Below, in pieces: positions 4,381-4,453 of a stretch of DNA of 5,035 bases. Made by a program: the position numbers and the translations under genes. The DNA is from Escherichia phage phi-8. Each line of letters opens with the position of its first letter. Positions within the stretch are counted from its first letter, which is position 1. A model generated the notes under the pieces. That model saw only the letters and a program-made list of their open reading frames with translations. It made no database searches and was not told the DNA's origin. The stretch lies in the sequence record KF241843.1. The stretch is one strand, 5' to 3'.

Positions 4381-4453
4381 CACAATGTGTATTTTTACTT
4401 GTATTTGAGAAGTACATATTGTATTTTTTATTCGTGGTTACTATGGAGGGCAT
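4381..4453. promoter_or_regulatory. OR: OR region: PR promoter and operator half-sites between cI and cro (PRM presumably embedded)
   Basis: Plus strand TTGTAT-N17-TATTTT (4399-4404 / 4422-4427) about 27 nt before cro ATG. Spacer carries GAAGTACATATTGTA (4409-4423), same 15-mer as in pL spacer with one mismatch. Further TTGTATTT-like repeats at 4386-4397 and 4399-4408. GGAGG SD at 4445-4449. Confidence 0.5.

Follow-up and report, generated by a model that had tools for sequence, protein, structure and literature searches.

A repeated 15-mer as the probable core of operators OR1 and OL1 in a VT2-Sakai-type phage immunity region

The window considered here is the whole stretch of DNA that was analysed, 5,035 nucleotides from Escherichia phage phi-8 (sequence record KF241843.1). 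Its insert, at positions 79-4986, derives from a lambdoid Shiga-toxin phage and spans its early-left and immunity region, from gam to cII, as judged from open reading frames, Pfam domains and alignments, and the genes follow in the order gam, kil, cIII, ea10, N, the pL intergenic region, an open reading frame of 173 aa, cI, cro and the start of cII. At both ends of the window (1-78 and 4987-5035) there is cloning-vector polylinker with NotI, EcoRI, SpeI and other sites, which we take to resemble the multiple cloning site of pGEM-T Easy. The features that bear on the immunity region are collected in Table 1.

Table 1. Genes, predicted promoters, copies of the 15-mer and predicted operator sites in the window, with half-sites and centres of the operators separated by hyphens
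Feature	Positions	Strand	Sequence or remarks	Basis
N	1660-2004	-		ORFs, Pfam
pL (predicted)	2122-2150	-	-35 TTGACC 2150-2145, 17-bp spacer, -10 TACTAT 2127-2122	promoter scan
OL1 (predicted)	2123-2139		TAGTAC-GATAT-GTACTT (minus strand AAGTAC-ATATC-GTACTA); overlaps pL spacer/-10	AP005153, Yin 2015, PMC10742460
15-mer, OL copy	2126-2140	-	GAAGTACATATCGTA	sequence match
OL2 (predicted)	2148-2164		CAATAC-AATTT-GTTCTA; overlaps pL -35 by 3 bp	AP005153, Yin 2015
OL3 (predicted)	2181-2197		TACAAC-GCTTT-GTATTT; weakest site	AP005153, Yin 2015
cI repressor	3684-4343	-	HTH_3 N-terminal and Peptidase_S24 C-terminal domains	ORF, Pfam
cI-cro spacer	between cI and cro		110 bp
pRM (putative)	4351-4378	-	-35 TGGATG 4378-4373, 16-bp spacer, -10 TAATAA 4356-4351	AP005153 annotation
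OR3 (predicted)	4352-4368		TATTAC-GCTCT-GTACTG; overlaps pRM spacer/-10	AP005153, PMC10742460
OR2 (predicted)	4378-4394		ATGCAC-AATGT-GTATTT; left half-site weak	AP005153, PMC10742460
pR (predicted)	4399-4427	+	-35 TTGTAT 4399-4404, 17-bp spacer, -10 TATTTT 4422-4427	direct reading
15-mer, OR copy	4409-4423	+	GAAGTACATATTGTA	sequence match
OR1 (predicted)	4410-4426		AAGTAC-ATATT-GTATTT; overlaps pR spacer/-10	AP005153 putative operator, VT2-SA OR1 (PMC10742460 Table S1)
cro	4454-4669	+	71 aa, HTH_3	ORF, Pfam

Stx2 phage 1717 and the PA-series (PST1) phages share 99.9% identity with the window over positions 2000-4700 (2.7 kb), as do the Stx1-converting phage and Stx2 phage II of strain Morioka V526. 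Aligned separately, VT2-Sakai showed only a handful of differences over the same positions. The nearest relative is phage 1717, with 2 substitutions in 3.5 kb. In the 5' region of cII (4784-4960) there is a cluster of 10-11 substitutions relative to VT2-Sakai and AP005153 that is missing in the comparison with phage 1717, and because of this pattern the insert is of the 1717 type to the right of cro, where a recombination boundary is likely. The 173-aa open reading frame (2661-3182, minus strand) lies between cI and OL, at the position of rexAB in lambda; a Pfam search with it found no domain, and it matches phrog_2602, a family of unknown function. It is followed by a terminator-like hairpin (2359-2338, minus strand), and phages phi458, SPN9CC and 933W have other genes at its position.

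The cI protein is a natural domain mosaic. Its N-terminal domain has no sequence relationship to that of lambda cI, and residues 84-219 (window 3684-4090), comprising the hinge and the C-terminal domain, show 2 differences from lambda cI (PDB 3bdn) over about 136 aa. Because this part is almost identical to lambda cI, RecA-dependent self-cleavage and dimer-dimer cooperativity of the lambda type are very likely properties of the protein by analogy. Cro is 35% identical to the N-terminal domain of cI, and the recognition helices of the two proteins read TQGAIGHW in Cro and TQGGIGHW in cI, a near match which one expects of proteins that compete for the same sites. The best match of Cro among solved structures was PDB 28tn_A, a 'lambda repressor-like protein' of 82 aa (E = 4.5e-17), and the N-terminal domain of P22 C2 gave a weak match.

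An earlier note on this DNA, made by reading the sequence, had proposed that a 15-mer common to OR and OL is a candidate operator. The repeat itself was readily confirmed: the word GAAGTACATAT(T/C)GTA is present in two exact copies, one in OR and one in OL, inverted relative to each other, and a search of the whole window with up to 3 mismatches returned nothing beyond these two. The pair forms the longest inverted repeat within 1900-4700 (22 nt, 86% complementary), and by a naive estimate a specified 15-mer would recur in 5 kb, on one strand or the other, with a probability of about 1e-5 to 1e-4. Since the region is rich in A and T, and T-rich short words (TGTATTT, for example) turn up easily in it, the recurrence might be put down to nothing more than an AT-rich word repeated by accident in AT-rich intergenic DNA. 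However, the window contains 6 copies of TGTATTT where 0.9 would be expected and 10 of the pattern RTAC-N5-GTAY (up to 1 mismatch) where 3.8 would be expected, and in neither case did any of 200 shuffles reach the observed number. Together with the simulations and the conservation pattern described below, these counts effectively refute an accidental origin, to which we give next to no credence.

The 15-mer belongs to a longer unit. Each site is a 17-bp dyad built as 6+5+6, with half-sites nA(G/A)TAC around a 5-bp centre, and in OR1 and OL1 it takes the form AAGTAC-N5-GTAYTn. The 15-mer covers the core of this dyad, but it starts 1 nt early and ends 3 nt short of it. The number of operator sites, which could not be fixed by eye, came out as three in each operator region. 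OR1 is predicted to be the strongest site for cI and Cro. OR2 abuts the -35 hexamer of pRM, lies 4 bp upstream of the -35 hexamer of pR, and has its centre at about -42 from the predicted pRM start. Measured between centres, successive sites are 32 and 26 bp apart in OR, and 25 and 33 bp apart in OL.

Additional repeats had been reported to flank the 15-mer in OR, and these were confirmed, TGTATTT being enriched as given above and present in OR at 4388, 4400 and 4420. Of the copies, 4388-4394 forms the right half of OR2. The middle copy at 4400-4406, considered as a fourth operator or half-site, does not have a partner half-site at the N5 distance; we do not count it as an operator because it is not conserved in phages phi458 and Louie (TTGCATTC), and we assign it to the -35 region of pR. 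A role of the dyad as an RNA or DNA hairpin was also set aside, the arms being 6 bp long, AT-rich and located upstream of the predicted start sites.

The promoter hexamers that had been proposed around the two 15-mers, separated by 17 bp in pR as well as in pL, read in the sequence as described. The placement of the repeat within the promoter spacer was correct for the last 12 bp of the spacer, which OR1 and OL1 cover at pR and pL respectively, but the outer half-site of each operator extends beyond the spacer and makes up the first 5 bases of the -10 hexamer. A consensus promoter scan recovered pL, and pR, with 7/12 matches to the sigma-70 consensus, stayed under the threshold of the scan. 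Despite this low match the hexamers of pR are supported because their register is kept across related phages: a -10 of the form TAnnnT starts at position 13 of OR1 in 10/10 phages, the window included, and a TTGnnn-like hexamer is found 16-18 bp upstream of it in most of the ten. An alternative register, TTTACT-18-TATTGT, has 8/12 matches and was not favoured, since the family keeps TTGnnn-(16-18)-TAnnnT anchored on OR1 position 13. The T run that follows OR1, in or after the -10 of pR (4424), has 6 T in the window and in phage 1717, and 7 T in VT2-Sakai and AP005153 (GTATTTTTT(T)ATTC). This 1-T difference does not alter the OR1 17-mer, and it moves the start site and the cro ribosome-binding site by 1 nt relative to the -10. 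On the other strand, the register of pRM relative to OR3 mirrors that of pR relative to OR1 and is kept in relatives. The putative pRM hexamers suggest a weak promoter, as expected of one that depends on an activator, and its predicted start at about the cI ATG (4343) would give a leaderless cI mRNA.

These sites are not a new finding. The six 17-mers have already been annotated or published as putative operators of the VT2-Sakai immunity type. GenBank record AP005153 contains six 17-bp 'putative operators', all of which could be mapped onto sites of the window, and Table S5 of Yin 2015 gives six 17-mers as putative PST1 operators, 'same as operator sequences in E. coli O157:H7 Sakai', crediting the operator set to Fattah et al. 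2000. The proposal that the 15-mer is an operator therefore agrees with the published record, in which it forms the core of putative OR1 and OL1, and the comparative tests presented below point the same way. The same 17-mers have been used as VT2-SA OR1-3 and OL1-3 oligonucleotides (PMC10742460), in experiments where lambda CI alone was tested on isolated oligonucleotides and gave an apparent KD of 3.7-6.4 µM; micromolar binding by lambda CI says little on recognition by the cognate repressor. The literature searched, outside which Fattah 2000 and Tyler 2004 lay, yielded no footprint, EMSA or reporter assay in which the cognate cI or Cro had been used, and a search by site sequence returned nothing relevant.

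Two annotation slips in these sources should be mentioned. In AP005153 the N-facing promoter, that is pL (2623-2650 of that record), is labelled 'putative maintenance promoter for CI', and in Table S5 of Yin 2015 the sites are numbered in genome order, the cro-side ones as OL and the N-side ones as OR, against the lambda convention. Table S2 of the same paper lists for strain PA16 a T-to-G SNP, at PA4 position 9377, in 'predicted operator OR2'. Placed by offset alone, this SNP falls at about position 2160 of the window, on the conserved T of the GT in the right half-site of OL2 (position 13), and it may be a natural operator variant.

With the N-terminal domain of cI as query, tblastn gave about 60 records of homo-immune phages and about 90 more distant ones. 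We examined the cI-cro spacers of seven heterologous phages, whose cI N-terminal domains are 34-55% identical to that of the window (Salmonella SPN9CC and ST64T, Erwinia Midgardsormr38, Vibrio H8, Enterobacter BHUENT6, Klebsiella ST512-KPC3phi13.5 and Pseudomonas BR161c), and TAC-N5-GTA dyads were present in 7/7. A symmetrised matrix was built from the sites of these phages alone, with none from the window. In the 5-kb window this matrix placed OR1 first with 16.8 bits, followed by OL1 (14.2 bits), OR2 (12.0 bits) and OR3 (9.9 bits). The mean maximum in simulated 5-kb sequences was 8.9 bits, and 0/300 reached the score of OR1. The remaining left sites scored lower, OL2 with 9.2 bits (rank 6) and OL3 with 7.7 bits (rank 9), values reached in 37% and 70% of the simulations respectively, so that neither is above chance by the matrix alone. 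Further matches, at 741-757, 1000-1016, 1571-1587 and 2465-2481 (7.7-9.6 bits), are at chance level and unclustered, and were rejected. In phi458, Louie, SPN9CC and Midgardsormr38 the same matrix finds sites clustered at OR and likewise at OL.

Conservation was assessed by comparing the window with phi458 and Louie, whose cI N-terminal domains are 95-97% identical to its own. Changes were found at 1/60 positions of the half-site core, at 6/30 positions of the 5-bp centres and at 21/48 positions of the DNA between operators (Fisher p = 3e-8 for core versus spacer, and 0.005 for core versus centre). In OR2 the half-sites are kept and the centre is altered, and in OL2 the changes are confined to the centre while the adjoining spacers have diverged. 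The pattern is that of half-sites held under purifying selection in comparison with the intergenic DNA around them.

These results bear on the question of how many of the left sites are functional. Because OL2 and OL3 score in the range of the best chance match in random 5-kb sequences, and each has one degenerate half-site, it could be argued that the functional sites are OR1 and OL1 alone, perhaps with OR2 and OR3, and that OL2 and OL3 are annotations made by analogy with lambda. The left operator would then have fewer sites, as in 933W, where there are two (PMC5977221). We consider this unlikely, since OL2 and OL3 are kept in phi458 and Louie beside spacers that are about half substituted (in the case of OL3, 16/17 positions are kept next to a 16-bp spacer with about half of its positions changed), and since the 25-bp spacing between OL1 and OL2 recurs in SPN9CC and Midgardsormr38.

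Another explanation would need no repressor site at all. The two copies of the 15-mer lie in the same register between -35 and -10, their likeness runs on into the -10 to give the 22-nt inverted repeat, and the outer half-site serves as -10 too. Perhaps, then, the shared word reflects only a common promoter ancestry, whether through duplication or through convergence of strong early promoters. However, in sigma-70 promoters the spacer is usually under less constraint than any other part, whereas in this case it is conserved, and it is instead the -35 region of pR and the DNA between the sites that diverge. The dyad also recurs at four more positions outside the promoter spacers of pR and pL, and in heterologous phages, where it co-varies with a related HTH. 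Promoter ancestry as the whole explanation is thus very improbable in our judgement.

The arrangement of the sites is also conserved. The spacing is 25-26 bp between OR3 and OR2 and 32-34 bp between OR2 and OR1 in 10/10 phages from six host genera. In the window, one dyad motif of fixed length recurs in several copies at both OR and OL; the sites are found between the divergent cI and cro genes and ahead of N, where they overlap the early promoters; and the adjacent genes encode an HTH repressor with a LexA-like self-cleaving domain and a Cro with a matching helix. These results suggest that OR1 and OL1 are the primary operators of a VT2-Sakai-type lambdoid immunity region and that the 15-mer forms their core, a reading to which we would give a probability of about 0.9. 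We infer from the sequence that cI and Cro bind the six sites, and the affinity order, the cooperativity and the transcription start sites are likewise our predictions.

If OR1 and OL1 are the primary operators, a cI dimer would sit on each 17-bp dyad, and a Cro dimer would take its place during lytic growth. cI would fill OR1 and OL1 first and thereby block RNA polymerase at pR and pL, as expected because these two sites cover the end of the spacer and the start of the -10, and cro, cII, O and P on one side and N on the other would be turned off. The weaker sites would be filled with the help of the lambda-type C-terminal domain of cI. From OR2, at about -42 of pRM, cI would activate pRM; lambda cI activates its own promoter from this same position. 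OR3, over the -10 of pRM, would serve for auto-repression at high repressor levels, and OL2 and OL3 would complete the left operator. Self-cleavage of cI, stimulated by RecA in the SOS response, would free the sites and lead to induction of the phage and production of Stx2.

The spacing leaves room for a different wiring. In lambda the operators are spaced 24 and 23 bp apart, centre to centre. Because the spacing in the window exceeds this, OR2 is clear of the -35 of pR. There is an asymmetry as well, OR2-OR3 and OL1-OL2 being 25-26 bp apart and OR1-OR2 32-34 bp apart and variable. Taken together with a cooperativity domain identical to that of lambda, this might mean that OR2 and OR3, and not OR1 and OR2, are the cooperative pair. 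OR1 would then repress pR alone, because OR2 does not touch the pR -35, and auto-repression of pRM would set in almost at once after its activation, which would keep the repressor at a low level. We regard such a rewiring as a speculative idea that is probably wrong, but if it were correct the very common Stx2a phage type of O157:H7 would have a 'hair-trigger' induction like that of 933W and BAA2326 by a third mechanism.

The sites would control induction of the Stx2a prophage in E. coli O157:H7 strains of the Sakai type, and through it the release of toxin. Their exact positions matter for the reading of natural operator polymorphisms, such as the PA16 SNP, and for the design of experiments with reporters or against induction. 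The sites themselves have been in GenBank and in the literature since 2000-2003, and what this analysis adds is support from the matrix, from conservation and from spacing.

Among Shiga-toxin phages with other immunities, 933W resembles the window in being an Stx2 phage with OR1-3 between cI and cro, and its OR1, CGTACTGAAAGTACG, has the GTAC-N5-GTAC core in common with OL1 of the window. Its footprinted operators are 15 bp long, with a GAAC-type consensus and two OL sites, and its repressor binds without cooperativity (PMC3317979, PMC5977221). The cI of 933W is 19% identical to that of the window, no alignment between the two Cro proteins was detectable, and with the family matrix the 933W operators score at most 1.6 bits, the value of OR1. 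All three comparisons speak against the 933W immunity type, with its CGAACT-type 15-bp operators, for the window. In the annotated 933W sequence (5776-5846) the spacing is 24 bp for oR1-oR2 and 32 bp for oR2-oR3, the reverse order of the 32/26 seen in the family of the window. The immunity of the BAA2326 / O104:H4 type was rejected as well, its footprinted operators (ATAACTGTGCGTAATG and related sites; PMC5977221) having no resemblance by eye to the sites of the window.

Epsilon34, ST64T, phage L and other P22-like or lambdoid phages with a helix of the TQGxxxHW type have the same TAC-N5-GTA dyad, a three-site OR, and the same spacing and promoter register. Their cI N-terminal domains are 34-55% identical to that of the window, and because the flanking bases of the half-sites differ, their immunity specificity is probably different from that of the window. 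For epsilon34, whose repressor N-terminal domain shares about 50% identity with its counterparts in phages L, VT2-Sa and Nil2, the operator consensus WTACRAWWTGTAT was proposed independently (PMC2629481). The operators of these phages are, like those of the window, computational predictions.

The likeness to lambda lies in the plan of the region. There are three 17-bp dyads at each of two operators, OR lies between the divergent cI and cro, site 1 covers the lytic promoter, OR3 covers pRM, OR2 is located at about -42 of pRM, and the C-terminal domain of cI, with its cleavage site and cooperativity surface, is nearly identical. OL and OR are about 2.3 kb apart in the window, and the distance in lambda is close to this. 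The differences are in recognition: the half-site is nARTAC in the window and TATCAC in lambda, the N-terminal domain of cI differs, and Cro is an HTH_3 protein in the window and does not have the lambda Cro fold.

Finally, the window belongs to the immunity type of VT2-Sakai and Stx2 phage II, since its six 17-mers and its cI and cro are identical to the published set. The same identity holds for VT2-Sakai (Sp5), Stx2 phage II, the Stx1-converting phage of Morioka V526, phage 1717 and the PST1 phages. AP005153 and AP005154 are the GenBank records of this operator set. The window shows no difference of substance from it, the one-T difference in the run after OR1 being a point of detail.
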